DNA from: a virus
Taxonomy: Duplodnaviria > Caudoviricetes
DNA: 60,441 nt
Direction: 5' to 3' (one strand)
IMG/VR virus record: IMGVR_UViG_3300045283_000290
Span: 1-60,441 of that record
The notes beneath the pieces were generated by a model. That model was not told the DNA's origin, searched no databases, and was given only the letters and a program-made list of their open reading frames with translations. The position numbers were made by a program, and so were the translations under genes. Shown here in pieces: positions 2,231-58,832 of this stretch. Each line of letters begins with the position of its first letter. The first letter of the stretch is position 1.

Positions 2231-2956
2231 ATGGCGCGTAATCTGGTAAAGCCGAAGCCCGCCCGCTTGGAAGACCTAGTCGAGGAGATCGACGTAGAGC
2301 AGGGCAGCGAGGAGTGGCGCGCGCTCCACGTCGGTGTGCCGTCCGCCGGCATCTTTCGCGCCGTCATGGCGGAGAGCCGAGAAGGTCCAGACACCGGCGT
2401 CCGCGCCTCGCTCCTTCACCGCATGGCTGCGGAGATCATCTTCGAGCGTCCGATGGAGACGTTCTCGAACGCCGACATGGACCGCGGCCGCGAGCAGGAG
2501 CCATGGCTTCTCGAGCAGTATGAGACCGAGCAGCACCGCAAGGCCTTCGCGCGCAACGCCACTTTCCCCGGCCTTCGGCGCGTCGGCTTCATAAAGCGCA
2601 CCATCCGCGACCCGCTGATGGAGGAGCCCCTCGTCGTCGGCTGCTCGCCGGATGCCCTCGTCGAGGACGACGGCATGGTCGAGACGAAGTCGATGCGGCC
2701 GAACCTCCTGGTGAAGCTGCTCGACTCCGGGCGCTTCCCTGGCGAGCACCGCTGGCAATGCCAGGGCTCGCTCTGGGTCAGCGGGCGGGCCTGGTGCGAT
2801 CTCCGCATCGGCTACGAGGAGTTTCCGCTCCGCGGGGAGTGGCGCATCCAGGCCAGCGATACCGATGCCCAGACCCTCCGCAATCAATGCGAGCGGTTCA
2901 TGTGGGACCTGCGCAAGCTAGTCGAGCGGGTGCGGGCGAAAGGAGGAGCGCGATGA
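2231..2956 (+). CDS. YqaJ/lambda-exonuclease family recombinase nuclease
   Basis: EQGSEEW, RGREQEP, GCSPDAL...ETK and QCQGSLWVSGRAWCD motifs. Confidence 0.9.
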   Translation: MARNLVKPKPARLEDLVEEIDVEQGSEEWRALHVGVPSAGIFRAVMAESREGPDTGVRASLLHRMAAEIIFERPMETFSNADMDRGREQEPWLLEQYETEQHRKAFARNATFPGLRRVGFIKRTIRDPLMEEPLVVGCSPDALVEDDGMVETKSMRPNLLVKLLDSGRFPGEHRWQCQGSLWVSGRAWCDLRIGYEEFPLRGEWRIQASDTDAQTLRNQCERFMWDLRKLVERVRAKGGAR

Positions 2957-3659
2957 AAGTCGATGAGCGAGTACTCCGGGTAATTGATCGAGCGACGTGC
3001 CGCGGAGATTTGCTCGTGCTGCCGGAGCAGTTGGAGCGGGAGGACTATCTCGCGGTCGACAAGGTTCTGAAGGCCGCGGGCGGCAAGTGGAATCGCGCAC
3101 GCGCCGGCCACGTCTTTGACGGCGGTGCGGCAGAGGCAATCGACCCGATCATCCTGACCGGGACGGTCACCGATGCAAGGCGCGAGTTCGGAGCGTTCTT
3201 CACCCCGCCGGATTTGGCCCGGCGAGCCGCAAAGCTTGCCGGCCTCCGCGACGGCTACCGCGTGCTTGAGCCGAGCGCCGGCCACGGGGCCCTGGTGCTG
3301 GCGGCACGCGCAGAGGCAAACGTCAAGGTCGACGCCGTCGAGCTGTATCCGGGAAGCTCCGTAGTGCTGAAGTCGGTCGATCTCGGCGGCGGCCGCCTCT
3401 GGGGGGAGACCGATTTCCTCGCCATGGGCCCAGGCGACGTCGGAAAGTTCGACGCCGTTCTGATGAACCCGCCGTTCGCGAAGATGGCGGACGCGAAGCA
3501 CGTCTTGCACGCGATCAACTTCGTTAGCCCTGGCGGTCGGATCGTTGCGATCATGTCGGCCGCAGTCACGTTCCGGCAAGCGGTCGACTATCGAATAATC
3601 CATGCCTATCCGGTTGTCACCCACAAACCCAAATACCCTCTAGATGTAGATGCTGACTC

Positions 3660-3854
3660 ATGATCGAAAAATCCAAAATACGGGATTTCTCAAAGCTCAA
3701 TATTCGAGACGGGGTGATCCATTACCGACTCTACCAGCAAGACGGAACGATGGTCGCCATGACCGTAAGAGACACCTATTCGATGCGGCTTTTCGTTTCG
3801 TGGGTACAAATTCACGACAGGTACACGGCTCACAAATCGGTCGCCGGAACATGA
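3660..3854 (+). CDS. Small hypothetical cargo protein (64 aa)
   Basis: Starts just inside the left end. ATGA overlap with the SpoU gene suggests translational coupling. Confidence 0.5.
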   Translation: MIEKSKIRDFSKLNIRDGVIHYRLYQQDGTMVAMTVRDTYSMRLFVSWVQIHDRYTAHKSVAGT

Positions 3855-4330
3855 ACATGCGCGGCTTTGCGGCAATCGGCCTCGACAATCCCAAAACGCC
3901 GTCGAATATCGGCGGCGTTCTGAGGGCTTGCGGATGCTATGGGGCCGCCCTTGTCGTTATCGGCGGCCCGCGCCCTGAGAGGCTTTCAAAGCTTTCCACG
4001 GACACCCAAAAGGCTTGGCGGCATATCCCTCACGTCCTCGTCGGCGACGTGTTTGATGCCATCCCGTATGACACTGTTGCGGTTGCCGTTGACTTGATTG
4101 ACGGCGCAATACCGCTGCCGCGTTACTGTCATCCCGAGCGCGCTTTCTACATTTTCGGGGCCGAAGACGCGACGCTCGGAAAGCGAATCCTTGATCGTTG
4201 CCGCGACAAGATCGTGGTGCCCACGAACTACTGCATGAATTTGGCGGCGACCGTGAACGTCGTCCTCTATGACCGGGCGGCAAAGGCCGCGCGCGCCGAC
4301 GTAGTTGCGAACAAAATGAGGCATCCATGA
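3851..4330 (+). CDS. SpoU/TrmH-family (SPOUT) RNA methyltransferase, cargo of E1
   Basis: GLDNPKTPSNIGGVLRA, YIFGAED and CMNLAATVNVVLYDR are SPOUT motifs 1-3. Confidence 0.88.
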   Translation: MNMRGFAAIGLDNPKTPSNIGGVLRACGCYGAALVVIGGPRPERLSKLSTDTQKAWRHIPHVLVGDVFDAIPYDTVAVAVDLIDGAIPLPRYCHPERAFYIFGAEDATLGKRILDRCRDKIVVPTNYCMNLAATVNVVLYDRAAKAARADVVANKMRHP

Positions 4331-4750
4331 CCGGCACTAGATGTAGAGGTGTGGGTGACAACCGGATAGGCATGGAATAATCCGATCGCTGACCTCGCAT
4401 GGAGGCGGCATCGAGCCGCTGCCGGCGGGCTCGTTCAAAAAATCCGGCACCGACGTAAATGCCTGCCTTGTGCATTTCGATGTATCCGCGCGGATGCGAG
4501 AGGAGGACCGGGCAATGAAGGCGCAGATGGAGAGCACCAGCGTGATCGATACCGTCACGCTTCCCGACGGGACGAAGGCGCGGGCGCGGCGATGGGACGG
4601 GGTCAGCGAGAAAGGCGTCCGGTTCTGCGCCTGGGTGCTGTTCTGTCAGGTCCCCGCCGCGGCTGACCAGGCGGAGTTCGAGCGCGCCCTCGCCGAGTCG
4701 AAGATCGAGCGCGAGCTGGTTTCTTTCGACTACCGCATGGTGGCGGACTG

Positions 4751-5236
4751 ATGCGCTACGGATTCAAGGCGCGCTTCGTTGCCCCGATCCAGGCCGGGCT
4801 CGGCATCCTGCCGATGTTCGAACACTGCGGCAAAGGCGTGCCGGCCGAGTTCACGCTTGAAGCCGGCGAGCTACGCCCATTCGATCCGGCGCGCGACCTT
4901 GATCCTCCGATATTCCCGAAGCGGCAGACCATCCGCGCGCACCGCAGGGGCCGCAGCCGCCACGTCCGCCCCGGCGAGGAGATTTCGCTGTGGCACGGTC
5001 CTCGTATGAAGCCGAAGCTGATCGGGCGGGCCCGGTGCACGAGCATCGAGCCGATTGGCTTTCGCGTGGCGTCGTCGCATCTTTTCCTCGAGCGGCCGAA
5101 CGGCTTTCAAAGCATCACGGACCTGTTTGCTCGGGCCGATGGCTTCGCCAATGCCGGCGAGATGCGCGACTTCTGGATCGCGGAGCACGGCCTCGGCATC
5201 TTCCGCGGCGTCATCATCCGGTGGGAGCCGCTGTGA
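4751..5236 (+). CDS. ASCH/PUA-like domain protein
   Basis: KRQTIR...PGEEISL...IGRARCTSIEPI...FARADGF...FW pattern. Confidence 0.65.
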   Translation: MRYGFKARFVAPIQAGLGILPMFEHCGKGVPAEFTLEAGELRPFDPARDLDPPIFPKRQTIRAHRRGRSRHVRPGEEISLWHGPRMKPKLIGRARCTSIEPIGFRVASSHLFLERPNGFQSITDLFARADGFANAGEMRDFWIAEHGLGIFRGVIIRWEPL

Positions 5237-5838
5237 GGTATCTCCCCGTCAACTTCACCTGGCGCGTCGTCGACGTCGTCGATGCCGACGGCGTCGCGGA
5301 GCGCCGCTTCGCCATGGTGCCGGCGAAGCGCTACGCGAACGTCTGCGGGCGCCAGTTTCACGAGGACGAGGAGTACCCGCTGGCGCCGCTCGAGGCGCGA
5401 TCGCGGTCGAGCCACAACCACTTCTTCGCCGCGCTCGCCGACGGCTTCGCGAACATCCCCGAGGACGTCGGCATGGTGCAGCAGCGGCTCAACATCAAGA
5501 CGATGCCGCCGGGCGGCTGGAAGGACGAGGAGCATTTCCGGGCATGGGCGCTGTGCGAGACCGGCTGGTGCGACCTCGACGAGTTCGAGTTCGACTCGCC
5601 GAAGGATGCCGTCACCTTCGCCCGCTACTGCCGCAAGAAGGACGACGAGCGCGACGCCTACACGATGATCCTCGTCCGCGGGAAGCACGTCACCATCAAG
5701 ACCCCGAAGTCTCAGAGCGCGGCGAACATGTCGAAGGAGCCGTTCGAACAGAGCAAGCGCGACGTGCTCGACCTTCTGGAGACGATCACCGGGCTCAAGA
5801 AGGGGACGCTCAACAAGGAGGCGGGGAAACACGCATGA
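5233..5838 (+). CDS. NinB/DUF1367-like phage protein
   Basis: RSRSSHNHFFA...PKSQSAANMSKEPFE pattern. GTG start overlaps the previous stop. Confidence 0.55.
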   Translation: MRYLPVNFTWRVVDVVDADGVAERRFAMVPAKRYANVCGRQFHEDEEYPLAPLEARSRSSHNHFFAALADGFANIPEDVGMVQQRLNIKTMPPGGWKDEEHFRAWALCETGWCDLDEFEFDSPKDAVTFARYCRKKDDERDAYTMILVRGKHVTIKTPKSQSAANMSKEPFEQSKRDVLDLLETITGLKKGTLNKEAGKHA

Positions 5839-6164
5839 CTCGCCAGCCCGACCTATTCGACATGCGCTCCCCGTACCGGAACCGGCCGGGGCACAAGGAG
5901 CGCGGCGGCACGTCCGAGGCCGCGGCCCGTGCGGTCGCAGGCGATGCCGACAACCTCCAGCGCGAGGTCTACCGCGCATTCGTGGCCGCCGGCCGGGACG
6001 GACTCACGGCAGACGAGGTCGCCGCCAGGGTCGGGCGCAGCGTGCTCTCGGTGCGCCCGCGCGTGACCGAGCTGGCGCACGCCGAGCGGCCGTGGATCGC
6101 GAGGACCGGCGAGCGCCGGCGCAACGAGAGCGGCCACAGCGCCGCGGTCTGGAGGGCTACATGA
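5835..6164 (+). CDS. Winged-helix DNA-binding protein
   Basis: GLTADEVAARVGRSVLSVRPRVTEL...TGERR. Confidence 0.7.
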   Translation: MTRQPDLFDMRSPYRNRPGHKERGGTSEAAARAVAGDADNLQREVYRAFVAAGRDGLTADEVAARVGRSVLSVRPRVTELAHAERPWIARTGERRRNESGHSAAVWRAT

Positions 6165-6334
6165 ATCACATCGTCACAACAGATGACGGGCAGTTTTGCG
6201 TCTTCGAGGACGACCATCAGGTTGCAGGCCCTTTCGCGACGGAAGCTGAGGCTTGGGCGTGGATCGACCGGCACGGCAAAGAGGGGCGCGCCGACTCCGA
6301 TCGTCACAACCGTATCAGGCAGGCATTCTCATGA
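6161..6334 (+). CDS. Small hypothetical protein
   Basis: ATGA-coupled, with upstream GGAGG. Confidence 0.55.
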   Translation: MNHIVTTDDGQFCVFEDDHQVAGPFATEAEAWAWIDRHGKEGRADSDRHNRIRQAFS

Positions 6335-6548
6335 ACGCGGCAACCTTCGTCCTCATCGCGACGCTCGCCTGCGGCGACCCCGCGCTGACGTTTCGCGAGT
6401 TCTTCGCCACCACCAGGGCGAGCCGGCGTTTCCTCGCGGCCATCACTACGAGACGACGGAGATGTACCTGACGCGCCAGGCCGAGGCGTTCGCCGACTTC
6501 CTCGACTACCGCGCCGCGCGCGCCGACAAATGCGGGAGGGCAAAGTGA
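6331..6548 (+). pseudogene. Small hypothetical protein with apparent frameshift near 6410
   Basis: MNAATFVLIATLACG... continues plausibly in another frame as QGEPAFPRGHHYETTEMY... Confidence 0.45.
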
Positions 6549-6880
6549 GAGAGATGTTTCACCCCCTGGAGTGGGAGCCGATCGCGTCGTGCCCCGAGGG
6601 CACCGCCGTCGAGGGCTGGGTCGATCGACCCGACGGCGGCTACCGGCTGCCGTTCCCGATCGCCTGGCGGCCGCGACGGGCGGCCGATGGGATTGCCATC
6701 TGCTCACCGGCAATGGTGCCGTCGGGATGCGACCCTCGTCGCCGGTGGCAAAACGTCGAGTACGAATCGCCAATCGATCTGGTCGTCGCGCCCTCGCACT
6801 GGCGACGCTGGCCCGAGCGGGTGTCGGCCGTCTTCGTCACCCGGGAGCTACCCCGACGCCAGGCCGGAGTCCGCGCGTGA
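6545..6880 (+). CDS. Phage hypothetical protein (DUF551-like)
   Basis: WEPIASCPEGT...PSHWRRWP. Confidence 0.55.
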   Translation: MREMFHPLEWEPIASCPEGTAVEGWVDRPDGGYRLPFPIAWRPRRAADGIAICSPAMVPSGCDPRRRWQNVEYESPIDLVVAPSHWRRWPERVSAVFVTRELPRRQAGVRA

Positions 6881-7197
6881 GCAAGATCACCGTCCAGGAC
6901 CAGCTCAAGGAGATAGAGGCGCTCATCCTCGACTTCCGGTGGGCGCGCGATACGCCGAGCGCGCCGGAGTGGCGCACGTTCCAGGTCCTCAAGATAATCG
7001 CCGCGAACCTGCGCGCTCAACTCCCCGGGGCTGCGGAGGAGGCGAGGGCCTCGATCACCCGCCGCTTCGGTGACCTGGACGCGCTGCGCGCGCGCATCGG
7101 CGGCGAACTCGGCGTCCTGCAGGAGTTGAACGCGCGATGGCCCGCGATCTCGCACGCGATCGAGGTGGCGTGCCGAATTGATCCGGAGGGAAAATGA
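6877..7197 (+). CDS. Hypothetical protein
   Basis: GTGA-coupled ORF with coding-like codon usage. Confidence 0.6.
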   Translation: MSKITVQDQLKEIEALILDFRWARDTPSAPEWRTFQVLKIIAANLRAQLPGAAEEARASITRRFGDLDALRARIGGELGVLQELNARWPAISHAIEVACRIDPEGK

Positions 7198-7596
7198 GCC
7201 GGAGCCGCGTGCACATGCTGATGGTTGCGGCCGCCAAGGTGCGGTCGCTCCAGCCGAAGATCGCCGAGGCGCTCGAGACGGCCCGCGCGCGAGCAGGCGG
7301 AGAGCCACGCCGAGGGCGCCGACTTCGACAAGCTGCGAGGCCGCCAGGAGGAGAGGCGCATCGAGCGCCAGCGGACACTCTTCCACGCCCTGCCGTCGTC
7401 GGGCCACACCGACCGGCTGCGCGGGGCGATGCTCCAGCGCGCCTACGACCTCATGTGGGACGGCTTCACGACCGAGTGTGACGCGCTCGTCGAGTTCCTG
7501 CCGAGCGACCTTGTCGAGGAGATGTTCGCGGCGTGGGAGGCCGACTCGATGGGGCGCGAGCCCCGCTCACGATTCTACGACGGAGGAAACAAATGA
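7194..7596 (+). pseudogene. Hypothetical protein with apparent frameshift near 7290
   Basis: MSRSRVHML...ETARA joins REQAESHAEG...FYDGGNK across a GCGCGC run. Confidence 0.5.
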
Positions 7597-7982
7597 CGAC
7601 GCTGATTGAGAGCATACTCATCGACCGCCTCATCCAGCAGGTGGAGCGGAGGACGCGGGCGGAAGATAAGAGCGGCGAGCACGTCGCCGCTCTGGGCGAC
7701 GCCGCCCTCCGCATCGTCGATCTGGAGAAGGACTTCGCCCGCGCCAACGAGAAGGCCGACGCGATGGAGAAGCTCGCCGACCGCAAGGCCAGCCAGGTCA
7801 ACGACATGATCCGGAGCCGGAACGACGCGGAGAAGCGACTGTTTGCTCTCTACGAGGCGGCCGACGCGCTGGTGAAGGAAATCGCCCGGCGGAAGAACCC
7901 GCACAAGGTCGACGACCTACGACGCCGCCTCGGCGTGGCGCTGCAGACCGCCCACGACGACTGCGGGCAGATTCCGTTCTGA
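7593..7982 (+). CDS. Coiled-coil hypothetical protein
   Basis: GGAGG RBS; ends in IPF. Confidence 0.65.
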   Translation: MTTLIESILIDRLIQQVERRTRAEDKSGEHVAALGDAALRIVDLEKDFARANEKADAMEKLADRKASQVNDMIRSRNDAEKRLFALYEAADALVKEIARRKNPHKVDDLRRRLGVALQTAHDDCGQIPF

Positions 7983-7984
7983 CG

Positions 7985-8602
7985 ATGCCGCGCCTCTATC
8001 GCCCGCACATCCCCGTCGAGGTCCGCTGCCGCGTCGCCCTGCGGCAGCTCGGCGAGATGTGGCCGGACCAGGTCATCGCCGCGCGGCGGCACACAGGGCG
8101 CGACGCGCACATCAAAAGCCTTGGCGTCCTCAAATCGAATAGCGGCGGCCTCGGGGCGCTGCTCGACGAGAGCCTCGCCAAGCTGGCCGATCTTCTGAAT
8201 TGTGAGGTCGGGCGCCTTCGGCTCGACCACAACCCTGCCCTGGGTGCGCGCGAGATCGTCGCCGAAGGCATCAAGAACGGCAAGCGGTGGGCGACGTACA
8301 GGCCCGATGCCAACAACCTCGAGTTTTTGATCTATCGGGAGAAGCACGCGCACCACATCAAGACGAACGTCCGCGGCGACGGCGCACAGCACCCCGACCG
8401 CGTGCTCATCAAGCGGGAGCGCCGGCGAAAACGGGAAAATACTTTAGGTGGGCGGCCTGTTTCGGGAAAACGCTTTAGGTGGGCCAAACACTCGCGCGGG
8501 TTGAAGGGCCGGCCGAAGGTGAAAATCCGCTCGCGCGGCTTCCGCAAGGTCGCCAAACAACGAAGGCGCCAGCTCCCGATCCCACCCAGGAGGATGACGT
8601 GA
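7985..8602 (+). CDS. HNH-like protein with basic C-terminal tail
   Basis: LDHNPALG...NNLEFLIY..KHAHHIKT. Confidence 0.55.
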   Translation: MPRLYRPHIPVEVRCRVALRQLGEMWPDQVIAARRHTGRDAHIKSLGVLKSNSGGLGALLDESLAKLADLLNCEVGRLRLDHNPALGAREIVAEGIKNGKRWATYRPDANNLEFLIYREKHAHHIKTNVRGDGAQHPDRVLIKRERRRKRENTLGGRPVSGKRFRWAKHSRGLKGRPKVKIRSRGFRKVAKQRRRQLPIPPRRMT

Positions 8603-9234
8603 CCGCCATTGCCCTCGCCGCGGCGATCGCCGCGAGCGTCGCCGGAGCCGAACTCAAGTCGCCGCGGTGGGAATTGGAGCTGACCCCGCATGGCTTCATC
8701 ATTTGGTTCCGCTTCGACCCGCCCGCCGGTCTGCAAGACAGAGACGGAGACGTGCGCGTGAGCAACCGCCCGATGATCCTCGGCATGAACAACCCGCTCT
8801 CCGACGCCCCGGAGCACGCGCTCTACCCGCTGCCGGCCGGCTGCACCGGCTCGCGGCTGTTCGGCATCCTGAAACTCGTGTGGCCCGAGATCGGGTTCCG
8901 CGACTACCTGCGCAGCTACGAGCGGCGCAACCTCGTCGTCGGCCAGGCTTGGAGCGCCGTGGCCGGAAGGATCGCAGCCGACGTGCTGCGCGAGGAGATC
9001 GCCAAGAGGCGGTCGGTCCAACAAATAGCCGTGCTCGGCGCGCAGACGTGGGCGGCGATTCATGGGCACCGCGACGACACGCCGGTGCTGGCCTCGCTGC
9101 GGGTCTCCAACATCGTCTGGAACCGGCTGCCGCATCCGAGCGGCCGGAACCCCTGGTACAATGTCGAGGAGAACCGGCTCGCCGCGGCGCGGCTGCTCCT
9201 CTCTCTCCTCACGCCGCTGCCGGAGACGACATGA
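8599..9234 (+). CDS. Hypothetical protein
   Basis: Coupled ORF with AGGAGG upstream. Confidence 0.55.
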   Translation: MTAIALAAAIAASVAGAELKSPRWELELTPHGFIIWFRFDPPAGLQDRDGDVRVSNRPMILGMNNPLSDAPEHALYPLPAGCTGSRLFGILKLVWPEIGFRDYLRSYERRNLVVGQAWSAVAGRIAADVLREEIAKRRSVQQIAVLGAQTWAAIHGHRDDTPVLASLRVSNIVWNRLPHPSGRNPWYNVEENRLAAARLLLSLLTPLPETT

Positions 9235-9414
9235 GCATCGAACGCCGCAACGGAAAGGTCGTCATCGAGTGCGACGTCGTGAACTGTCAGGCCGAGGTCG
9301 AGGGCGACGACTTCGAGAGCGCTTGGCGGGGACGCGAAGGGCGCTGGCTGGCGCGCGAGGAAGATCGGCCGCGACTGGGTGCGGGGCTGCCCGAAACACG
9401 CGAGGGACATCTGA
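9231..9414 (+). pseudogene. Small Cys-containing protein with an extra G in a GGGG run (~9330)
   Basis: Removing one G gives MSIERRNGKVVIECDVVNC...WRDAKGAGWRARKIGRDWVRGCPKHARDI*. Confidence 0.55.
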
Positions 9415-10223
9415 TGGGACTCATTCTGGACGACACCGGCAAGCCGGTGAAGGGCTTCGACGTGATCTATCCGCCGGGTTCGCAGGCGTGGGAGTACGCG
9501 CCGCTCGCGACGAACCCCTACAAGGGCTGCGGGCACGGCTGCGCCTACTGCTACGTGCCGCTCGCCACTCACCAGAAGCGCGCGGAGTTCGACGCCGGCG
9601 CCGTGCCGAGGCCAGGCTATTGGGGGCGCCTCGCCGACGACTGCCGCCGATATGAAGCCGCAGGCGTGCGCGAGCAGGTGCTCCTCTGCTTCAGCACCGA
9701 TCCTTATCACCCCGGCGACACATCGCTGACGCGAGGAACGCTGCTGACTCTAAGTCAGTTTGGCCTCGCCTTCTGCACGCTGACGAAGGGCGGAGAGAGA
9801 TCGATCCGCGACTGCGACCTCTTCCGGCCGGACCGCGACGCCTACGCCGCGACTCTCACGAGCCTGGACGACGCCTTCTCGCTGAAGTGGGAGCGCAACG
9901 CCGCGCTCCCGAGGGAGCGCATCGACACGCTGGCGACGTTCCGCAGCCGCGGCATCTTCACCTGGGTATCTATCGAGCCGACGCTCGACGCCGAGCACAG
10001 CCTCGCCGTCATCAGAGAGACGGCGTCCTTCGTCGACCTCTTCAAGATCGGCAAGGCGAACTATCTCGGCGAGTTCGGCAAGCGCATCGACTGGCGAGAC
10101 TACACGCTGCGCGTGATCGACCTCTGCCAGCGGCTCGGCGTCAAACACTACGTGAAGCGCGACCTCCAGCAATTCCTGCCGGAGGGATACCACAACCCGC
10201 TGCGCATCCCGCAGCATCACTGA
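9414..10223 (+). CDS. Radical SAM protein (SplB-like)
   Basis: NPYKGCGHGCAYCY (CxxxCxxC), STDPY, LTK and WVSIEP motifs. Confidence 0.85.
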   Translation: MGLILDDTGKPVKGFDVIYPPGSQAWEYAPLATNPYKGCGHGCAYCYVPLATHQKRAEFDAGAVPRPGYWGRLADDCRRYEAAGVREQVLLCFSTDPYHPGDTSLTRGTLLTLSQFGLAFCTLTKGGERSIRDCDLFRPDRDAYAATLTSLDDAFSLKWERNAALPRERIDTLATFRSRGIFTWVSIEPTLDAEHSLAVIRETASFVDLFKIGKANYLGEFGKRIDWRDYTLRVIDLCQRLGVKHYVKRDLQQFLPEGYHNPLRIPQHH

Positions 10224-10238
10224 AGGAGCAAAACCAAA

Positions 10239-10958: not shown

Positions 10959-10975
10959 GGTGATGGCGGTGGGCA

Positions 10976-50350: not shown

Positions 50351-50369
50351 TCGCCCCTTCCCTCCGGGA

Positions 50370-50396
50370 ATCAACTTGATTAGTAATCAAGTTGAT
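50370..50396. promoter_or_regulatory. Perfect 13-1-13 inverted repeat, candidate operator
   Basis: ATCAACTTGATTA-G-TAATCAAGTTGAT, AT-rich, between divergent genes. Confidence 0.65.
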
Positions 50397-50424
50397 CTAA
50401 CCTGCCAGCCGCCAGGAGCACAAG

Positions 50425-50751
50425 ATGTCCGAGACCAACGGATCAAAGCCGCCGGAGCCGCCAGCGGAAGGCCGCCCGCTCTCCCCGACCGAGAGCTACA
50501 TGCGCCAGCACCTCGGCGTGATCATGTGCGGGATGAACGCCACGAACCCGCTGGTTCCGGCGCCAGTGCTGGTCGAGGAGGCCGCGCGCGCCATGGGCTT
50601 CGCTCTCGCGGCCCTCCTCATCACCACGCCCGAGGACCGCGGCAAGCTCTACCAGGCCATGCGCCGGGGCTTCCGCGACGGGATGGACGAGGCGCCGCGG
50701 CTCGAGCCGCTGGTGGCGCCGGCGACCGCCGACACGGCGGTGAAGGCGTGA
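50425..50751 (+). CDS. Hypothetical protein (counter-oriented moron-like)
   Basis: AGGAG RBS. Confidence 0.6.
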   Translation: MSETNGSKPPEPPAEGRPLSPTESYMRQHLGVIMCGMNATNPLVPAPVLVEEAARAMGFALAALLITTPEDRGKLYQAMRRGFRDGMDEAPRLEPLVAPATADTAVKA

Positions 50752-50899
50752 CGGTCGATTGGACGCGCTGGTGCGAGGGGCCGGAGACGCAGGCGCGGCT
50801 GAGGGCCGAGTACCTGGAGACGATCGCCAAGGAGCGCGATGCCGCAGCCGCCCGGTGGAAGCGGATGACGCCCGCGCAGCAGGCCGCATGGCCGCGGGT

Positions 50900-52597
50900 C
50901 TAGCGCCGGCGACGCCCCGCGGCCGCGAGCGCCTGGACCACGTCGGGCGTGAACGCGGCGGGCCCGGCCTCCACCCTGGCGAACCGCATCATGCAGCCGT
51001 CGGCGAGGTTCGGCGACGGCATGCCCTCGGGCGCCTTGTCGATGACGACCTTCCCCACGCCGTTCGTCGCGTAGGTCGCCTGCGATAGCTCGCGCTCCAG
51101 CTTGTCGAGGTTCGGCATGTCGGGGTCGAGGTCGATGATGTCGTCGGGCTCGCACGCCTGGCCCTTCTCGATCCACAGCCACGTCCGGTGGAAGCGACGG
51201 CGCAGGTCCATCCAGCCCTGCGCCTTGGCGTTCTGATAGTAGTCCTTGTTGAGCCGCCCGCCCTCGCCCTCGCGCCCCTTCGTCCCCTCGACGATGCCCT
51301 CGGGGTCTACGACGGCGCCGGATGCGCGCCAGCCGATGACGCGGTGCGTCTTGACCTTCTCCGCCCTCCGCCGGTCGTTGATCACGCGGGCATCGCCGCG
51401 CACCAGGGCGCCGAGGCCGTCGGCGTCGTAGCGCCACTCGTCGAAGCCGTGCTCGTCGGCGAGCGCGAACGCCCGCTCCACGGTGGCGAACGTGTCGGAA
51501 CCCTTGCCGCTCCACTCCTCGGCGACGCTGACCGTCGTGCCCTGGCCGCCGACGAAGGCGTTCGCGTCCTTGCCCTCGTCCGCGACGTCGAGCGCGGCGA
51601 GCTTGCGGCCGGACGGCGCGATGCCGAGCCGGCGCTTCGCCCCGATCGCCGCGCGCACCCACGTCCCGGGGATGACGATGCCGGCGACCGACGCCGATCG
51701 GTCGCGGTCGATCTCCTGCGCGACGACCACGGGGTCGAGGTCGCGCTGCTGGCGCTTGTACCACTCGTCGTCCTTGCGGGGGTCGTGGCGCCAGTCGAAG
51801 ACGAACGTCTTGACGCGCTTCTTGATGATCCGCTGCGCCGTCGGGTTCGCGCTGCCGTTGACCGAGGAGATGTCGATGCGGCAGTTCGTCGTCTGCGAGA
51901 GCGCGAAGTCGACGAGGTCCGGCCGCTCCAGGTACTCGGCCTCGTCCACGAAGTAGATCGACGTGCGGTCGCCGCGCCCGAGCTGGTCGCCGGCCTCCCC
52001 GGTGATGATCGAGCCGCTCTGCGGGAAGTTGATCCGCATGAAGGGCGCGTCGCGCCACGGCGTCCAGCCGCCGCGGAACTCCTCGGGCAGGTTCGTCATG
52101 AAGAGCCGCGCCTTCGGCAGGATCGGCTTGAACGTGCCGATCTTGTCGACGTACTCCTCCTTGCGGGAGCCGAAGCCCACCGCCATGCCCTCGAAGAATA
52201 GGCAGGCCGTGCAGGCGAACGCGACCGCCTCCCACGTGACGCCGCACTCGCGCGCCTTCTCCGTCGCGCCTGGCTCGCGCGAGCGCCAGCGCTCCCACAC
52301 CCAGTGAATCCACTCCCGCTGCTTCTCGAACAGCACGAACGGGACGATCGCCGGCAGGCCGATCTCGGGATTGCGCGGGTCGTAGGTGACGCCCCAGTCG
52401 CTGATGAAGTCGCAGATGCCGGCCGGCCCGGCCTTGTAGTACGCGCGGATGGAGGGGAGGTCCTCGGGGTGCGCGCGGATGTCGTCCAGCGCGGCGAGCC
52501 GCTGCGAGAAGATCGCGGCGTAGTCCGGGTTCTTGAAGTCGACGCGGTGGCGAGGCGCGAAGCTGACCGTCGGCGCCGCGAGCGCTCGGGCACTCAT
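50900..52597 (-). CDS. terL: Terminase large subunit
   Basis: EKARECGVTW Walker A-like, FVDEAE Walker B, ALDVADEG.D and SPNLADG nuclease motifs. Confidence 0.92.
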   Translation of the reverse strand: MSARALAAPTVSFAPRHRVDFKNPDYAAIFSQRLAALDDIRAHPEDLPSIRAYYKAGPAGICDFISDWGVTYDPRNPEIGLPAIVPFVLFEKQREWIHWVWERWRSREPGATEKARECGVTWEAVAFACTACLFFEGMAVGFGSRKEEYVDKIGTFKPILPKARLFMTNLPEEFRGGWTPWRDAPFMRINFPQSGSIITGEAGDQLGRGDRTSIYFVDEAEYLERPDLVDFALSQTTNCRIDISSVNGSANPTAQRIIKKRVKTFVFDWRHDPRKDDEWYKRQQRDLDPVVVAQEIDRDRSASVAGIVIPGTWVRAAIGAKRRLGIAPSGRKLAALDVADEGKDANAFVGGQGTTVSVAEEWSGKGSDTFATVERAFALADEHGFDEWRYDADGLGALVRGDARVINDRRRAEKVKTHRVIGWRASGAVVDPEGIVEGTKGREGEGGRLNKDYYQNAKAQGWMDLRRRFHRTWLWIEKGQACEPDDIIDLDPDMPNLDKLERELSQATYATNGVGKVVIDKAPEGMPSPNLADGCMMRFARVEAGPAAFTPDVVQALAAAGRRRR

Positions 52598-52817
52598 CGC
52601 AATAGCCCGGCGAGCGGGTGCCCCGCACGCACTCGACCGAAGCGCACCCACCTGCGGGCCGCCAGCTCGCACAGGGGCGCCGTGAGCGCGATTCCGTTGG
52701 CGCAGCCCGTGTGGGTCGCGCGCATCTTGCAACCGCACCAGCAACGGCGCCGCGTTTTGACCGGCAGCATGTAGCGCGGGTGCTCGACCGCCGACGCTCT
52801 TCGACCCCACTCGCTCA
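52594..52817 (-). CDS. Small Cys-rich protein
   Basis: RRCWCGC..RATH.G.ANG.AL...C. Confidence 0.45.
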
Positions 52818-53300
52818 CGTCAGTCCCTCGCGCCGCGGCCGTGCAGATAGAGCACGTCGGACATCTCGCGCGCGGTGAGCGGGAAGGCACCGGAACGTTC
52901 CCGCCTCTCCTCGACGCTAATGCTGTACTGCGGTGCAGGTACGCAAGCTGCGAGCGCGCATCGCGATTGCGCCTCATCATGGACTCCTCAGGGCTGTCAG
53001 GAGAGCGTTTCGTTCAGCGATCTTGCGCTCTGCGTCGGAATTGCCGGCGCCAAGGTTGACGCGACGATAACAGGTCCAGCAACAGACTTGTCCGCGTCCC
53101 TTTGATCCCGAGCAAAGCGGGCAGGTATCGTCCGCTCGGACTGCGGGGTTGTCTTCCATGTCATGCCCTCGCGTGGATGATCGCCGGGCGCGCCCATCTA
53201 CGCTGGAAGGCGCGCCACTCGAGAAGGTCGGGAGGTCCGAACCGCGCCAGCGCGTCGTCGGGCGTCGCCTTCGTCTTGCGCGGGAAGACGCGGATGATCC

Positions 53301-53756
53301 TCATCGCACCGCCTGCACGCGCCGCTGATAGATGCGCGAGAGTTCCTCGGCGTCGTGCAGCGCCACGACCTTCTCGCCGTCGATCATGCGCGGGTCCGGC
53401 GGCAGCGGCGGCGGGACGACCGCGATCGCCTTGAGCTTCGGGCTCTGGTACTCGGCGAGCTTGGCCGCCGTGTCGACCGCGAGGCGCGCGTACTTCTCGA
53501 ACTTCGCGTCGTCGGGCGTGCGGCCGGGCGCCGACACCACCCCGGGCGGGAGCGGCTGGTAGGCCGCCGCCATCCCGGCGAACAGCTCCATGAAGTCGTG
53601 GAGGACCTGCTTGCCGAGCTTCTCGGGCTTGCCGCCGGTGAGCATCTGCTCGGCGATGCGCGCCTTCTCCTCGCGCTCGATCGTGAGCTTGTTGCGGGAG
53701 CCGCGGGGTCGGCCGCCGGGGTGCTTCGGCTTGGTCGTCGTGGGGAGCGGCGTCAT
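53301..53756 (-). CDS. Terminase small subunit-like protein
   Basis: GGRPRGSRNKLT...AA.KLA.YQSPKL.AI; upstream of terL. Confidence 0.7.
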   Translation of the reverse strand: MTPLPTTTKPKHPGGRPRGSRNKLTIEREEKARIAEQMLTGGKPEKLGKQVLHDFMELFAGMAAAYQPLPPGVVSAPGRTPDDAKFEKYARLAVDTAAKLAEYQSPKLKAIAVVPPPLPPDPRMIDGEKVVALHDAEELSRIYQRRVQAVR

Positions 53757-53795
53757 GGAGAGTATTTTACTGCGGAAACTCGGCGGGCGCCAAGC

Positions 53796-54443
53796 TCAGC
53801 GCATGCGGACGCGCCCCACGCGCCCGTGGTCCCGACCTTTCAATTCAGCGGGCGCGTCGAAGCGGAAGGCATACTTGTCCACGATCTCGATCGCGAGGCG
53901 GCGCACGCGCGCGGCGTCGCCGACCTCGATGGTCTTCGCGTCGTGCTGGCGCAGGCGGTTCTCGAGCATGCGCTCGATCGGGCGCGCGGGATCCGTGCTC
54001 TTGAAGCGCGCGGCAATGTCGACGAGCGTCTCGCGGATGATCTTGCCGGCCTCGACGGTCTGCTCGGCCTGGGCGATCTCGTTGACCATCTGCAGGCGGA
54101 ACTCGGACAGGAGGTCGCGGCGGCGCGGGTCGTCGGCCGGGTCCAGGTTCGTGATGTATTTGTTGAGCGCCGTCTCGACGAACGCCTGGATGATGCCGAG
54201 AGCGGCCGCGCGGTCCGCGTTCTCGGTGGGCTCGTCGCCCATGGCGCCGGTCGCGTCGTAGCGGGCGCGCAGGTTGGGGTCTGAGAGGACGACGAGCGCG
54301 CGGCTCGTGCGGTTGAACGCGTCGACCGAGCCGCCGGCGTCGGGGTGCGTCTTCTTGCGGCGACGCTTGCCGGCGCGCTTGATCTCCTCGGTGGAGGCGT
54401 CGCGCGGCAAGCCGAGTTCCTCGTAAGGGTCGAAGGTCGTCAT
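53796..54443 (-). CDS. J-domain (DnaJ-like) protein
   Basis: DPYEELGL...EIKRA...THPD.GG...LSDP..RARYD. Confidence 0.88.
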   Translation of the reverse strand: MTTFDPYEELGLPRDASTEEIKRAGKRRRKKTHPDAGGSVDAFNRTSRALVVLSDPNLRARYDATGAMGDEPTENADRAAALGIIQAFVETALNKYITNLDPADDPRRRDLLSEFRLQMVNEIAQAEQTVEAGKIIRETLVDIAARFKSTDPARPIERMLENRLRQHDAKTIEVGDAARVRRLAIEIVDKYAFRFDAPAELKGRDHGRVGRVRMR

Positions 54444-55017
54444 TGCCTGTTTATGGTCACAAGGGCCGCATTGACGTCTGTGCCGGATTTCTTGAAGGAG
54501 CCCGGTGGCAGCGCCTCGATGGCCCCGCCGTTGTGAGAGGCCAGCGATCGAACGATCTGATAGTCCGTCGTCTCGCGGAATGTCACCGCAGCCGACATAA
54601 TCGCCACGAGATGACCGCCCTCGTCGAGGAAATTGACGGCGTGCAGCACGTGGCGCGCATCGGCCATCTTCGCGAACGGCGGATTCATGAGCACGCGATC
54701 GAAGCGGCCTATATCGCCCGGACTGGCCGCCAGGAAGTCGACCTCGCCCCACAGCCGGCCGCCGCCGAGGTCGATCGACTTCATCACGACCGCACTCCCC
54801 GGGTAAAGCTCGATAGCATCGACCTGGACGTCGGCCTCCGCTCGGGCGGCGAGGACCAGCGCGCCGTGCCCGGCACTCGGCTCCAGCACTCGCATGCCTG
54901 CCCGAAGGTCTGCGAGTTTAGCTGCGCGGCGCGCGAGGTCCGGCGGCGTGAAAAACACACCGAACTCTCGCTTGGCGTCCGTCACAATGCCGGTAAGCAG
55001 AATGGGATCAATGGCGC

Positions 55018-55310
55018 CATGCTTATCCGGTTTAGACACACAGCCCTACATCTTGTGTCTAGGCTGATTTCTTTGCAGCGGGCGCCGCGCGCTTGGCCGC
55101 TTCGAGAAATAGCGAGATGTCGTTGAGATGCCCGAAAAACTCTGCCTGCTTGGACTTAGGCAGCGCTTTGAACAACTCTTCGACCGCTTTCATGGTCTCT
55201 GTCGCCTCTTCCTTGGTAAATTCGCCCTGTGCCATCGTCACTCTCCTTTGGTTGATGATCACAACATCTAGTAGGTCTCAGCGTTTGTGTGTGTTAACCG
55301 GATAAGCATG
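55018..55310 (-). mobile_element. Non-autonomous IS1595 (ISSod11-type) cargo cassette E2, 293 bp
   Basis: TIRs CATGCTTATCCGGTT.A.ACACACA (23/25 match). 8-bp TSD AATGGCGC (55010-55017, 55311-55318). Confidence 0.95.
55059..55235 (-). CDS. 58-aa helical cargo protein of E2
   Basis: AAAGGAGAG RBS; MAQGEFTKEEATETMKAVEELFKALPKSKQAEFFGHLNDISLFLEAAKRAAPAAKKSA fills the cassette. Confidence 0.75.
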   Translation of the reverse strand: MAQGEFTKEEATETMKAVEELFKALPKSKQAEFFGHLNDISLFLEAAKRAAPAAKKSA

Positions 55311-55487
55311 AATGGCGCCGGCCGCGTCGTCCGGGAAGACATGCCCACTCCTCTTGCGGTCCCACTTGCCGCCCGCAGCATGGAGCACCTTGTCGACCGC
55401 GAGATAGGGGAACGCGATAGCTGCTCCGGCAATCGCAGCAGGTCTCCCTCGCAGGAGGATCGGTCGAGGACGCGCAACGTCGATTCG

Positions 55488-55839
55488 TCAACGCGCATCC
55501 TGCTTCTCCTCCGCGGGCGGCTCGACCTTCTCCGGCTTCCAGCCCTCGTCGCCGGGCAGGATCATCCGCATGCCCATGTCGCGCGCCAGCTCCCAGTCGA
55601 ACTCGCGGCCCATGTTGCCGACGATGGTGACGGCGATGCGCTCCTGGACGGCGCGGTTGAGGATCGGCCCGCACTCCTTGCCCCTCGTAGGGACCGAAGC
55701 GGAACGCGAAGGCGCCGCGGCCGACGACTATCCACCACTCCGTCGCGCGGCCGAGCGCGGCGTAGGTCTTGTCGAGTTCGCCCTCGCCGACGTGCATCTC
55801 CTTCGGCTCGCGGAAGGGTTTCGATTCCTGCTCGCTCAC
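55488..55839 (-). pseudogene. Hypothetical protein with apparent frameshift near 55682
   Basis: MSEQESKPF...GPYEG continues as KECGPILNRAVQERI...EKQDAR* across a GGGG run. Confidence 0.5.
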
Positions 55840-56040
55840 TTTGTTTGCTCCCGAAAATGAAAGGAGCCCGGCCCGCCGGCGTCCGTGCTCCCTGAGTTTT
55901 GCTGATGCTGTCGGAGGCTGTCGCCGCTCGGGCCAGGCGAATCGCAGCATAGGGGAAATCGGTCCCCGGCGTCCAGTGGACAACCTCGGGTCCAGGACGG
56001 TAAGTTGCCTGTGGAAAACTCGGAAAGGCGGGGGAACCAA

Positions 56041-56499
56041 ATGAACCGGATAAGGCGCCATCGCGACCTGGTGATCACGACGCACCAGCGCGACCTCTTG
56101 ATCGACCACCTCGACGGGCCGGCGCCGATCGTCAACTCGCCGCTGGCACGACGCGAGCACGCCGCGAACTGGAAGACGGTCTCGGCCAGGCGCGAGGCGC
56201 TCAAGGGTCTCGTCGAGCGCGGGCTGCTGCGGCTCGACATGCGTCACCGTACGCCCCGGACCACGGTGATGACCGAGAAGGGGCGGGCGGCGCTCGCGGC
56301 CGCGCTCGCGGACTGGGCCGAGGCGCTGGTGCGCGCCGGCTACGGCGTTAACGGTTCGTTGACCATGCCGGTGGTAGCCTCCTCGGCGATCTTGGAGGTC
56401 CACCAATGCTTGAGCGACGACGTCCCCGCGCCCTGCCCTGCGGCTGCTGGACAGACTGCCGGTTCCTCTGCGACGAGCACGCCCCTGTCGGGGTCGTGA
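56041..56499 (+). CDS. Winged-helix (MarR-like) protein
   Basis: ALKGLVERGLL...TVMTEKGRAAL. Confidence 0.55.
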   Translation: MNRIRRHRDLVITTHQRDLLIDHLDGPAPIVNSPLARREHAANWKTVSARREALKGLVERGLLRLDMRHRTPRTTVMTEKGRAALAAALADWAEALVRAGYGVNGSLTMPVVASSAILEVHQCLSDDVPAPCPAAAGQTAGSSATSTPLSGS

Positions 56500-56809
56500 T
56501 TCTCGACCCGCCGGTTGCCGAAGTAAATCTGCCAGCCCCGGATGCCCTCCTCCCGGGCGTACCGCCGCGCGCCGTCTAGCGTCGCGAAGCCTCCCCGCGA
56601 GGTGCCGTCGTCGAGCGCGAGCAGGTGGTATTCACGCATCGGCGTCTCCCCGGGGCCGGGGGAATGCGATCCACCTGCCCGCAGCCGCAGTAGCCGCCTC
56701 TTTTGGCGGCGCGCGCGGGGACTGGACATTCACCGGAAAGCACGCAACACGACGACTGCCGGGGACAATCGTCCCCGCAACCGGGCCAAGGCCCCACAAG
56801 GAGAGTACC

Positions 56810-57058
56810 ATGGAGACGAAGAAGAACGGCGCCGACGCGCCGACCATCGACCTGCCGGCGGACGGCTCGATCCCGCCGGAACTGCAGCGCGAGGACACCC
56901 CCGAGCAGCGGGAGCGGATCAAGGAGATCGTCGCGGCGGACCAGCGTGCCGCCACCGGCGCCGGCATCAAGACTGGCGGGCGAGCGGGGCCTCGCTCTCG
57001 GAACCGCGCGCCAGCACGTGAGCGCGTTCTTCGCCTATTGCAAGGAGGCGCTCGATGA
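56810..57058 (+). CDS. Small hypothetical protein
   Basis: AAGGAGAG RBS. Confidence 0.5.
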   Translation: METKKNGADAPTIDLPADGSIPPELQREDTPEQRERIKEIVAADQRAATGAGIKTGGRAGPRSRNRAPARERVLRLLQGGAR

Positions 57059-57125
57059 CTTCCACGGCCCGGCCTCGCGGCTCCAGCGGGTTCGGCGCGG
57101 CGTCTACAAGCTGGCGGACGGGCCC

Positions 57126-57491
57126 ATGCGCCGAGTGATCGTCGAGAGCCCCTACCGGGGCAAGGACCGCGCCGAGACCGAGCGGAACCGCAGGTACGCG
57201 CGAGCGTGCCTGCGGGACTGCCTCGTGCGCGGGGAATCGCCGCTGGCGAGCCACCTGCTCTACACGCAGGCCGGCGTCCTCGACGACGCCGACGAGGAAG
57301 AGCGCAACCTCGGCATCGAGGCCGGGCTCGCCTGGGGCGTCGTCGCCGAGGCGAGCGTCGTCTACGAGGACCTCGGCATCAGCCCGGGGATGGCGCGGGG
57401 GATCGAGCAGGCGCTCGGCGACGGCCGGCCGGTCGAGTACCGGCGCCTTCCGCCGCTCGCGCTTCGGCTCGGACTGCTTTCCGGCCGGTGA
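57126..57491 (+). CDS. Nucleoside 2-deoxyribosyltransferase-like phage protein
   Basis: VIVESPYRG...N..YAR....GESPLASHLLY.Q...ER.LGI...GIS.GM. Confidence 0.7.
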   Translation: MRRVIVESPYRGKDRAETERNRRYARACLRDCLVRGESPLASHLLYTQAGVLDDADEEERNLGIEAGLAWGVVAEASVVYEDLGISPGMARGIEQALGDGRPVEYRRLPPLALRLGLLSGR

Positions 57492-58707
57492 AGGTCTCCC
57501 ACCTCCGCACGGCGAGGTCGCAGTAGGTCGGGTCGACCTCGAGGCCGACCGCCCGCCGCTTCTCGATCTCAGCCGCGATGATCGTCGTCCCCGAGCCCAT
57601 GAACGGGTCGAGCACCGCCTCGCCTGGCCGGGTGTTGTTGACCATCGGGCGGCGCATGCACTCGACCGGCTTCTGCGTGCCGTGGCCGGTGCGGGCGTCC
57701 TTGCCCTCGGTCTTGCTCGTGAAGCCGACGTTCGAGTTGATGTCCCACACCGTCGTCTGCTTGCGGTCCCCGTTCCAGTGCGAGCGGGCGCCGCGCCGGA
57801 CGCCGTAGAAGCAGCACTCGTGCTGCCAGTGATAGTCGCCCATCGCCATCGCGAAGTGCGGCTTGTTCCAGATGATCTGCGCGCGGAGGAGGTAGCCGGC
57901 CTGCTGCAGCGAGCGCTGGACGACCGAGCTGCGCAGCCCGGCGTGCCAGATGTAGGCGACGTCGCATCCGCAAATCTGCCAGACCACCGTCCAGTCGGCC
58001 TGGTCGTCGTTGTAGACGGCGCCGCTCGCCGAGAAGTTCCGCTTCATCACCTTCTTGCCGTCCTGGCTCAGCTTCAGCTTGGTGTCGATGCGCTCCTTCC
58101 GCCAGGCCGGCCGGTAGTCGATGCCGTAGGGCGGGTCGGTGATGAGCAGGTGCGGATTGAGGTCGCCGCAGGCGAGCGCCACGTCGTCGCCGTCGGTGCT
58201 GTCGCCGCACAGCAGGCGGTGGTCGCCCATGATCCACAGGTCGCCCGGCTTGGTTACCGCGACCGCCGGCGGCTCCGGCACCGCCTCGGGGTCCGGCCCG
58301 TCGGTGCCGAGCGAGACGCCGAAGACGCGGAGCTGCGCCTCGGAGAACCCGAGCAGCGGCAGGTCGTAGCCCTCGTTCTTGAGTTCCAGCAGATCGCCGC
58401 GGAGCAGCTTCGCGTCCCACCCGGCGAGGAGCGGCAGCGCGTTGTCCTCGATGCGGATCGCCTTCTTCTCCGCCTCGCTGAGGCCGCGGCGCTGGACGTA
58501 CGGCGCGCCCTTGAGCCCGGCGAGCTGCGCCGCCTCGAGCCGGCCGTGCCCCTTGAGGATGACCCACGCCTCGTCGACGACGATCGGCTGGTCGAAGCCG
58601 CGCTCCTTGAGGATGGTCGCCAGCGCGGCGACCTCGTTCTCGGGGTGCGTGCGCGCGTTGTTCGGATACGGGACGAACCTGTCGAGCGGCGCCCACCCGC
58701 TCGCCAT
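57379..58707 (-). CDS. ParB-like N-terminal domain plus N4/N6 DNA methyltransferase (beta class); 5' end abuts the IS
   Basis: NARTH, GFDQPI and GHGRLEAA (ParB); TDPPYG, HGTQKPV and VLDPFMGSGTT (MTase). The frame stays open up to and through the IS end. Confidence 0.92.
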   Translation of the reverse strand: MASGWAPLDRFVPYPNNARTHPENEVAALATILKERGFDQPIVVDEAWVILKGHGRLEAAQLAGLKGAPYVQRRGLSEAEKKAIRIEDNALPLLAGWDAKLLRGDLLELKNEGYDLPLLGFSEAQLRVFGVSLGTDGPDPEAVPEPPAVAVTKPGDLWIMGDHRLLCGDSTDGDDVALACGDLNPHLLITDPPYGIDYRPAWRKERIDTKLKLSQDGKKVMKRNFSASGAVYNDDQADWTVVWQICGCDVAYIWHAGLRSSVVQRSLQQAGYLLRAQIIWNKPHFAMAMGDYHWQHECCFYGVRRGARSHWNGDRKQTTVWDINSNVGFTSKTEGKDARTGHGTQKPVECMRRPMVNNTRPGEAVLDPFMGSGTTIIAAEIEKRRAVGLEVDPTYCDLAVRRWETFTGRKAVRAEARAAEGAGTRPAGRRRAPARSPAPSPG

Positions 58708-58755
58708 CTTGCGGCCGTCGACCGCGAACGGGTCGGTCTTAACATGCCTATCCGG

Positions 58756-58784
58756 TTGACGCATACAGATACTTGTGCTAGTGT
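58756..58784 (+). promoter_or_regulatory. Putative sigma70 promoter for the transposase
   Basis: TTGACG-N17-TAGTGT within and next to the TIR. Confidence 0.5.
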
Positions 58785-58832
58785 TTCCGACGTTGACGGG
58801 CATTTCGCCCTCCGATGTTGGAGTAAAGAGCC

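Follow-up and report, generated by a model that had tools for sequence, protein, structure and literature searches.

ISSod11-type insertions in the three methyltransferase genes of a tailed-phage genome: a preferred target and dispensable genes as a plausible explanation

The virus record IMGVR_UViG_3300045283_000290 (Duplodnaviria; Caudoviricetes; 60,441 bp), which is analysed here over its whole length and called the window below, raises the question of why its three putative DNA methyltransferase (MTase) genes, and nothing else, are hit by mobile elements. The three elements, E1, E2 and E3, resemble the ISSod11 group of the IS1595 family of insertion sequences (IS). A preliminary description, made from the letters alone, had taken this pattern to imply either targeting of a gene class or strong selection to silence phage methylation. 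By examining the insertions together with those of relatives in other viral contigs, we found that such elements prefer an AT-rich palindromic target, that their insertions are biased towards short open reading frames (ORFs) and gene edges, and that they show no family-wide enrichment in MTase genes. The reading that we favour, with a probability of roughly 55%, is that the three elements transposed into their preferred motif and survived only in dispensable accessory genes, without any MTase-specific targeting.

Three independent insertions in three methyltransferase genes

By searching the window for the 15-mer CATGCYTATCCGGTT with up to two mismatches, we found exactly five occurrences, at 3601, 55018 and 58743 on the plus strand and at 4374 and 55310 on the minus strand, against 0.10 expected from shuffled sequences; none of 100 shuffles reached five. 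These ends pair as E1 (3601-4374, plus strand, 774 bp) and E2 (55018-55310, plus strand, 293 bp), and the lone left end at 58743 belongs to E3 (58743-60441, plus strand), which is cut by the end of the record and is at least 1,699 bp long. An alignment of 11 ends was made, and all five ends of the window begin with CATGCYTATC. Among the 25 longest of the 149 inverted-repeat pairs found in the window, most of which are G+C-rich matches with 70-84% complementarity, none is element-like except those of E1 (I1, 33 nt, 94% complementary) and E2 (I11, 25 nt, 92% complementary). E1 and E2 are flanked by perfect 8-bp target-site duplications (TSDs), namely GAATAATC at 3593-3600 and 4375-4382 for E1 and AATGGCGC at 55010-55017 and 55311-55318 for E2. 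For E3, the TSD predicted at 58735-58742 is GGTCTTAA. We looked for its second copy in a public soil metagenome run (X1), which is kept as contigs, holds 99% of the sampled words of the phage and is probably the source of the record. One X1 contig matches from 58743 onwards, and the letters before this point, which end in the reverse complement of GGTCTTAA, represent the other junction of E3 and thus confirm the predicted TSD. Since the inner ends, the cargo and the targets all differ among E1, E2 and E3, these are three independent events.

As described in PMC8101967, IS1595 elements generate 8-bp TSDs, encode a single transposase with Zn_Tnp_IS1595 and DDE domains and fall into seven groups, ISSod11 being one of them. 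E3 encodes a transposase of 349 amino acids (58833-59882, plus strand) with an N-terminal zinc ribbon (PF12760, 47.7 bits for a cut-off of 25.4) and a DDE-type domain (PF12762, 112.4 bits for a cut-off of 27), which also matches the IS1595 model NF033547 of NCBIfam with 187.8 bits (cut-off 75). Residues D156, D237, H272 and K279 (H-x6-K) as well as E301 and R305 (E301-x3-R305) are invariant in 12 aligned transposases. The ends fit the consensus nnnGcnTATC, and the invariant residues a catalytic D, D, H and K in place of DDE/N, both of which we take to mark the ISSod11 group. The domain pair goes along with an 8-bp TSD seen directly for E1 and E2, through the contig for E3 and in 113 relatives. 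Together, these features support the classification of the three elements as ISSod11-type members of the IS1595 family. With terminal repeats of IS type, a TSD and no transposase, E1 and E2 correspond to miniature inverted-repeat transposable elements (MITEs) or mobile insertion cassettes, for which an E3-like transposase presumably acted in trans.

E1 and E2 split two paralogous genes, MT1 and MT2. On the plus strand, MT1 starts at 2953 by overlapping the stop of an upstream exonuclease gene; its 5' piece (2953-3600, 216 codons) encodes an N6-adenine-type methyltransferase with the motif IV NPPF and reaches 28.9 bits with the Pfam profile N6_Mtase (cut-off 20.4), while its 3' piece is found at 4383-4751. 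On the minus strand, MT2 is left with a 5' piece at 55319-55498 and a 3' piece at 54440-55017, which scores 33 bits with the same profile and whose stop codon overlaps with the next gene downstream, starting at 54443. Once each element and one copy of its TSD are removed, the MT1 and MT2 frames are mutually collinear across both junctions, and the two genes share 72.5% identity over 440 nt. Given their profile matches, motif I and motif IV (NPPF), both are predicted N6_Mtase proteins, from a family of about 250 amino acids with more than 3,000 detectable relatives. The homologs are variously named methyltransferase, N-6 DNA methylase, restriction subunit M or predicted RNA methylase, and NCBIfam returned only sub-threshold matches, to RNA methyltransferases; their substrate may be DNA or RNA. 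The best relatives of MT1 are 64% identical in the protein collection and 51% in viral contigs. We also noticed that MT1 lacks the usual stop of its family, whose members end about 8-10 residues past an SGTxV motif. Its frame stays open to 4751, into the next gene, which is called at 4515-4751 with a strong ribosome-binding site of its own and a probable start at 4515; this reflects either a stop loss or a natural fusion.

The third gene, which we call ParB-MTase (ORF 57379-58742, minus strand), encodes an N6/N4 DNA methyltransferase with the motif IV DPPY (Pfam N6_N4_Mtase, 78.3 bits for a cut-off of 26.7). Its ParB_N match (20.9 bits) stays below the cut-off of 26.3; a PYxxNxRxH motif and full-length homologs are present. 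In one placement, E3 would lie 35 bp upstream of an intact gene starting at ATG 58707, in line with the gene caller's choice of this codon and with homologs that start 8-24 residues before PYxxNxRxH. Two observations overturned it. First, the stretch of 11 codons from the junction to ATG 58707 (58740-58708) has a coding score of +9.1 in frame and of -8.6 and -11.8 out of frame, and each of 11 confident training genes gives a negative score for the 11 in-frame triplets that precede it. Second, the 30 letters of the X1 contig place an ATG, in the reading frame of the MTase, 8 codons ahead of the insertion. E3 thus lies within the 5' end of the ParB-MTase ORF, which it cuts at about codon 9. A loss of function is likely, although the ORF from the internal Met at 58707 remains intact. 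The X1 contig cover is thin over 57-59.8 kb. A scan of 58500-59000 for a sigma-70-type promoter reading outwards from E3 returned none, which says little.

In the window, the motif IV pattern [DNS]PP[YFW] occurs in only 3 of the 81 called genes, which are MT1, MT2 and ParB-MTase. When 13 diverse MTases were compared with it by tblastn, five matched, all in the ParB-MTase gene, and no other place did. No relative was near enough to reveal the empty sites, as identity reaches only 30-40% for the best relatives of ParB-MTase. Likewise, E2 is present without differences in a 3,520-bp contig of X1 and no joint skipping it was seen, which is uninformative about empty alleles because contigs drop rare variants. 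The preliminary description is thereby upheld on all structural points, that is, shared ends and none elsewhere, two genes split with 8-bp TSDs, an E3 inside rather than upstream of its gene with the TSD it had predicted, an ISSod11-type affiliation, three separate events, and hits in all three MTase genes and nothing else.

Target preference and interrupted genes across the family

Viral contigs were scanned three times, in a way that captures only elements with an unaltered 15-mer at one of their ends; the yields were at least 120, 61 and at least 119 stretches. Among the matches listed, 113 unique elements have both ends (three mismatches at most in total) and a perfect 8-bp TSD. From 58 unique insertion sites of the first batch we built a weight matrix, which describes a palindromic and AT-rich target, roughly R-T-N before the TSD, R-W-W-B-V-W-W-Y within it and N-A-Y after it. 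Positions 2, 3, 6 and 7 of the TSD are A or T in 81-85% of the 58 sites, 76% have a purine at position 1 and the same share a pyrimidine at position 8, and T two bases before and A two bases after the TSD are found in 55% each. Accordingly, the G+C content is 34% in the TSDs versus 59% in the 2-kb flanks. Out of 57,642 positions of the rebuilt window, the E1 target ranks 7th and the E3 target about 578th (top 1%), the last five columns of the latter being added by hand from the letters of the X1 contig.

We then compared 86 insertions with 2,000 random positions for the size of the longest ORF spanning them. The median was 150 amino acids for insertions versus 265 for random positions (Mann-Whitney p ~1e-14). 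Insertions were within 15 codons of an ORF end in 41% of cases versus 14% at random, and only 13% of them, versus 43%, were in ORFs of at least 300 amino acids. No structural-protein family was found among the flank matches of the 113 insertions, whereas the control lists portal, Mu-F and tail lysozyme.

For each element, we rebuilt the empty site, took the longest ORF or the two longest ORFs across it, and scanned the pieces on either side against Pfam. In the first batch (60 elements, 143 pieces), N6_N4_Mtase, MethyltransfD12 and ParB_N were each found once, along with DUF5131, HNH_3, AP2, DUF1653, a RecA-dependent nuclease, NUDIX, NUMOD4 and SfsA; its MTase cases are L021, L074 and L087. 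In the second batch (55 elements, 114 pieces from 54 of them), a single weak C5 methylase (E 6e-4) was detected, next to DNA_pol_A, YAcAr, KTSC, TPR and Trypsin_2, as well as two IS1595 transposases that represent nested insertions. Hence, among the matches listed, 4 of 113 insertions interrupt DNA MTase genes, one of them by the weak C5 match. As a control, we drew 150 random positions from the same loci. The 137 distinct ORFs that contain them were scanned whole, and four of the positions were in MTase ORFs (two N6_N4, one D12, one C5). The two proportions do not differ significantly (Fisher odds ratio 1.3, p=0.73). The three Pfam-confirmed control MTases were still detected when cut at a random position (the fourth, a C5, was not identified or tested), and no cassette end was found within 400 bp of the candidate control MTase ORFs, which were picked by motif and include these three. 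We also retrieved 36 loci with MT1-family genes from other viral contigs. After dropping one partial match, all 35 genes were intact (244-265 amino acids), and no ISSod11-type end was found near them within the locus (~3 kb). The enrichment survey that the preliminary description had proposed, here run on viral contigs, thus gave no MTase excess among 113 elements, and its suggestion of gene-class targeting is not supported.

Other observations came from the same scans. One locus (L258) carries three separate elements and six (L093, L113, L269, L275, L314 and L333) carry two each. Uninterrupted homologs of ParB-MTase were seen within a few kb of ISSod11-type ends in L031/L338, L090, L121, L152, L276 and L351, which fits elements living in MTase-rich accessory modules. 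In bacterial genome contigs, 120 stretches yielded only 16 TSD-flanked elements; by our estimate, most single 15-mer matches in bacterial genomes are probably due to chance.

Compact cassettes and their cargo

The architecture of the cassettes was measured on 92 relatives of up to 1,300 bp. Their longest ORF covers a median of 85% of the element versus 47% for shuffled interiors, and a coverage of at least 70% was reached by 76 of the 92 relatives but by none of the 92 shuffled means. The ORFs tend to start 33 or 43 nt from one end and to stop 5, 13-14, 29 or 41 nt from the other. The ~40-50-bp ends of E2 recur, mostly with 82-100% identity, on about 40 cassettes with unrelated interiors. In 9 of 11 orientable cassettes the ORF is read inwards starting from one and the same side, in many cases with its ATG within the conserved end. 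The autonomous relatives measure 1.5-2.3 kb.

By scanning the 147 ORFs inside the 113 elements against Pfam, we found a transposase in 16-17 and a DNA MTase as cargo in 9 elements, of which four are N6_N4 (L286, L288, L077 and L037), three C5 (L036 and L313 among them) and two D12 (L039 and L017); one more carries Mom. Single cases include NADAR, a TnpB-like protein, HNH and a PAPS-reductase fold, among others. DNA methyltransferases are therefore the commonest recognisable cargo. Their excess over neighbouring genes is modest and suggestive only, with 9 of 96 non-autonomous cassettes versus 4 of 137 neighbouring ORFs (p=0.044), or p=0.09 when counted over all 113 elements. The L087 cassette, which interrupts an N6_N4 MTase gene, encodes a DPPY motif in an ORF of its own. 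In L069 (1253-2408), a TnpB/Cas12f-like gene (OrfB_IS605 and TNB domains) is the sole ORF between ISSod11-type ends with an 8-bp TSD; as read from these domains and ends, this is a predicted RNA-guided nuclease gene riding in a cassette of another IS family.

In the window itself, E1 differs from the phage in G+C content (0.558 versus 0.686) and carries two genes. The first (3660-3854, plus strand, 64 amino acids) has no Pfam or NCBIfam match, and its stop overlaps the start of the second (3851-4330, plus strand), which encodes a SpoU/TrmH (SPOUT) class methyltransferase of 159 amino acids (Pfam SpoU_methylase, E 4.5e-16, 59.7 bits for a cut-off of 29.7). In NCBIfam, the latter has weak sub-threshold matches only, to TrmL, TrmJ and RlmB, and reaches no equivalog; it looks like an RNA methyltransferase, not a DNA methyltransferase. 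E2 carries an ORF of 60 amino acids (55059-55241, minus strand), preceded by the good ribosome-binding site AAAGGAGAG and scored 10.5 by the gene caller, again with no family match in Pfam or NCBIfam. The passenger ORF of E3 (60081-60410, plus strand, 109 amino acids) has no match in these two collections either, and a tblastn search for homologs of the cargo of E1, E2 and E3 found none in any fetched locus. One X1 contig joins 59828 to 60315 and skips 486 bp that contain the passenger ORFs of E3; being a single contig with short sides, it could represent a copy of the element without passenger cargo. Another X1 contig (4,164 bp, ~56x, which is the depth of the phage) overlaps 60315-60441 and extends about 4 kb past the end of the record. 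Since it runs on beyond 60441, the rest of E3 and of the phage is present in public data.

Members of the ISSod11 group are simple IS of about 1.0-1.1 kb without passenger genes. The present elements share with them the CATGCYTATC ends, the 8-bp TSDs and a single zinc-ribbon transposase with D-D-H-x6-K. They differ in that E3, at 1,699 bp or more, carries at least one or two passenger ORFs and sits in a phage genome, and in that most relatives found here are transposase-less cassettes. Mobile insertion cassettes are non-autonomous IS derivatives with a passenger gene; MIC231 of Bacillus cereus, derived from IS231, is an example. E1 and E2 resemble them, and MITEs, by their IS repeats and TSDs, the absence of a transposase and one or two passenger ORFs, but differ from MIC231 by their parent family (IS1595), their location in a phage and the extreme compactness of the 92 measured cassettes. 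Dam-controlled transposition of IS10 and IS50 is a precedent for methylation of IS ends governing transposition; for the CATG/CCGG sites in the ends described here, such a control, which the preliminary description suggested, would be an idea only. Mycobacteriophage mobile elements (MPMEs) comprise one or two near-identical elements in one host genus, unlike the cassettes found here, which carry many unrelated cargos; a sequence relation between them is not expected. In abstracts such as that of PMC5356059, MPME1/2 are presented as very small transposable elements of phage genomes with one small ORF. In PMC7468147 (Bellas et al. 2020), orphan MTases are the commonest annotated genes in phage variable islands (51 of 482), which fits both the loss of MTases in our phage and MTases as cassette cargo; the term "inverted repeat" is absent from this paper, and its passages on the MTases name no vehicle for them. 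Titles and abstracts on ISSod11/IS1595, mobile insertion cassettes and phage MITEs contained no description of such cassettes or of the target preference reported here.

Weighing the explanations

The record is linear (CheckV estimate 83%) and represents a tailed-phage genome of ~69% G+C (0.686). Its gene calls include a minus-strand block of long intact ORFs at ~11-53 kb, which suggests a structural module. The large terminase lies in this block (50900-52810, also given as ~51-52.4 kb), with DNA matches to terminases of Burkholderia, Bordetella and Salmonella phages. The left arm (1-11 kb, plus strand) encodes an RNase H-like protein, an Erf-like annealing protein, a RecE-like exonuclease and a NinB/Orf-like protein, which makes the neighbourhood of MT1 a recombination module (Erf, exonuclease and NinB, the exonuclease by PHROG).

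In the scenario that we favour, three separate ISSod11-group elements transposed into the phage, E3 as an autonomous element and E1 and E2 as non-autonomous ones, and two ordinary filters would have shaped what we observe. First, the transposase prefers AT-rich palindromic targets, of which a genome with 69% G+C offers few. Second, insertions would persist only where the interrupted accessory gene is dispensable. We infer that the three MTase genes are dispensable and that their function is lost. They represent 5.0% of the rebuilt window by length (7.5% by target weight), and 18% of the non-structural arms (~16 kb) by length (26% by target weight). With MTase genes making up a fifth to a quarter of the permissive space, three hits in them would be uncommon but unremarkable. 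The preliminary description had put the chance of three hits out of three at about 1e-4. This figure stands for uniform insertion (1.3e-4) and is overstated otherwise, since the chance becomes 4.3e-4 under the target model, 5.9e-3 within the arms only and 1.8e-2 with both. All these values refer to an MTase category that was defined with the data already in view, during a scan of very many windows.

Several observations weigh against this explanation. The E2 target is only middling (about 4,831st of 57,642, top 8.4%), and E1 and E2 are interior disruptions whereas 41% of the family insertions are close to an ORF end. Even the most generous null gives about 2% for three out of three, and the treatment of the ~11-53 kb block as non-permissive rests on the terminase match and the gene layout, not on essentiality data. 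Two of the ~17-21 autonomous elements (L021 and L074) interrupt MTase genes, compared with a background of 2.7%, although these numbers are small, and the L074 transposase is 80.5% identical to that of E3. Finally, the control positions lie within a few kb of the insertions, so that a preference for MTase-rich neighbourhoods would be hidden, and flanks were scanned as fragments but control ORFs whole, so that 4 of 113 may be an undercount.

Selection in this particular phage-host pair for the loss of phage methylation, with sweeps of variants in which each MTase was knocked out and the cassettes acting as the commonest mutagen available, is possible although we consider it unlikely. It could be driven, for example, by a methylation-dependent (Type IV-like) host defence or by the cost of MTase expression in lysogens. 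It would account for the interruption of all three MTase ORFs and nothing else, at a neutral probability of only ~0.006-0.02, and for the finding that the E2-bearing allele is the one in the X1 contig (~58x). MT2 also has a second lesion: compared with MT1 it lacks 1 nt near 55414, as seen from a frame switch and an alignment gap. The gene upstream of it in the same operon (55488-55836, minus strand) is frameshifted midway, a third lesion within ~550 bp: the G+C content at third codon positions is 0.87-0.93 in one frame in its first half and 1.0 in another frame in its second half. Both changes are present in the independent X1 contig. The MT2 corner of the genome is thus in decay. Relaxed selection accounts for this no less than selection for silencing does, as extra frameshifts are equally expected under the former. 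Moreover, the family shows no excess of MTase interruptions, the ParB-MTase keeps its ORF from the internal Met, and the record comes with no known host, methylome or defence system.

A broader view, which we hold to be doubtful, is that a large and so far undescribed population of ISSod11-type single-gene cassettes, whose ends supply the translation start and stop so that varied genes share one mobile frame, shuffles the accessory genes of phages, those for DNA modification above all, and drives a rapid MTase turnover. If true, this phage would have been caught both receiving a methyltransferase, with E1, and losing all three resident ones. A narrower view, in which the same family delivers modification cargo and displaces resident MTases so that gain and loss are coupled, seems improbable to us. 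The MTase and Mom cargos, their p value of 0.044 among non-autonomous cassettes, the SPOUT gene of E1 and the L087 cassette are in its favour. However, the cargo excess fades over all 113 elements, the E1 cargo points to RNA, those of E2 and E3 match no family, and MTase genes are interrupted at the background rate. Finally, active targeting of MTase genes in the absence of a common target sequence, whether by the transposase itself or by a host factor that it uses, to which only the pattern of the window and L021, L074 and L087 would point, is very improbable given 4/113 versus 4/150 insertions, 0/35 interrupted MT1-family genes, a clear common motif that explains the E1 site very well and no mechanism recognising a gene class that we are aware of.

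Had MTase genes been a real target class, the locus would have revealed a new kind of transposon targeting or a clear selection against self-methylation. The survey speaks against the former, and the latter may still apply to this one phage. What the analysis provides is a target consensus from 58 independent insertions of this IS group, and evidence that insertions in phage genomes are filtered to short accessory ORFs and gene edges. Beyond this, hundreds of compact cassettes made of one ORF between terminal inverted repeats are present in viral contigs, often with DNA methyltransferases. Orphan MTases are known to be mobile among phages, as are other small accessory genes, and such cassettes could serve as one of their vehicles.

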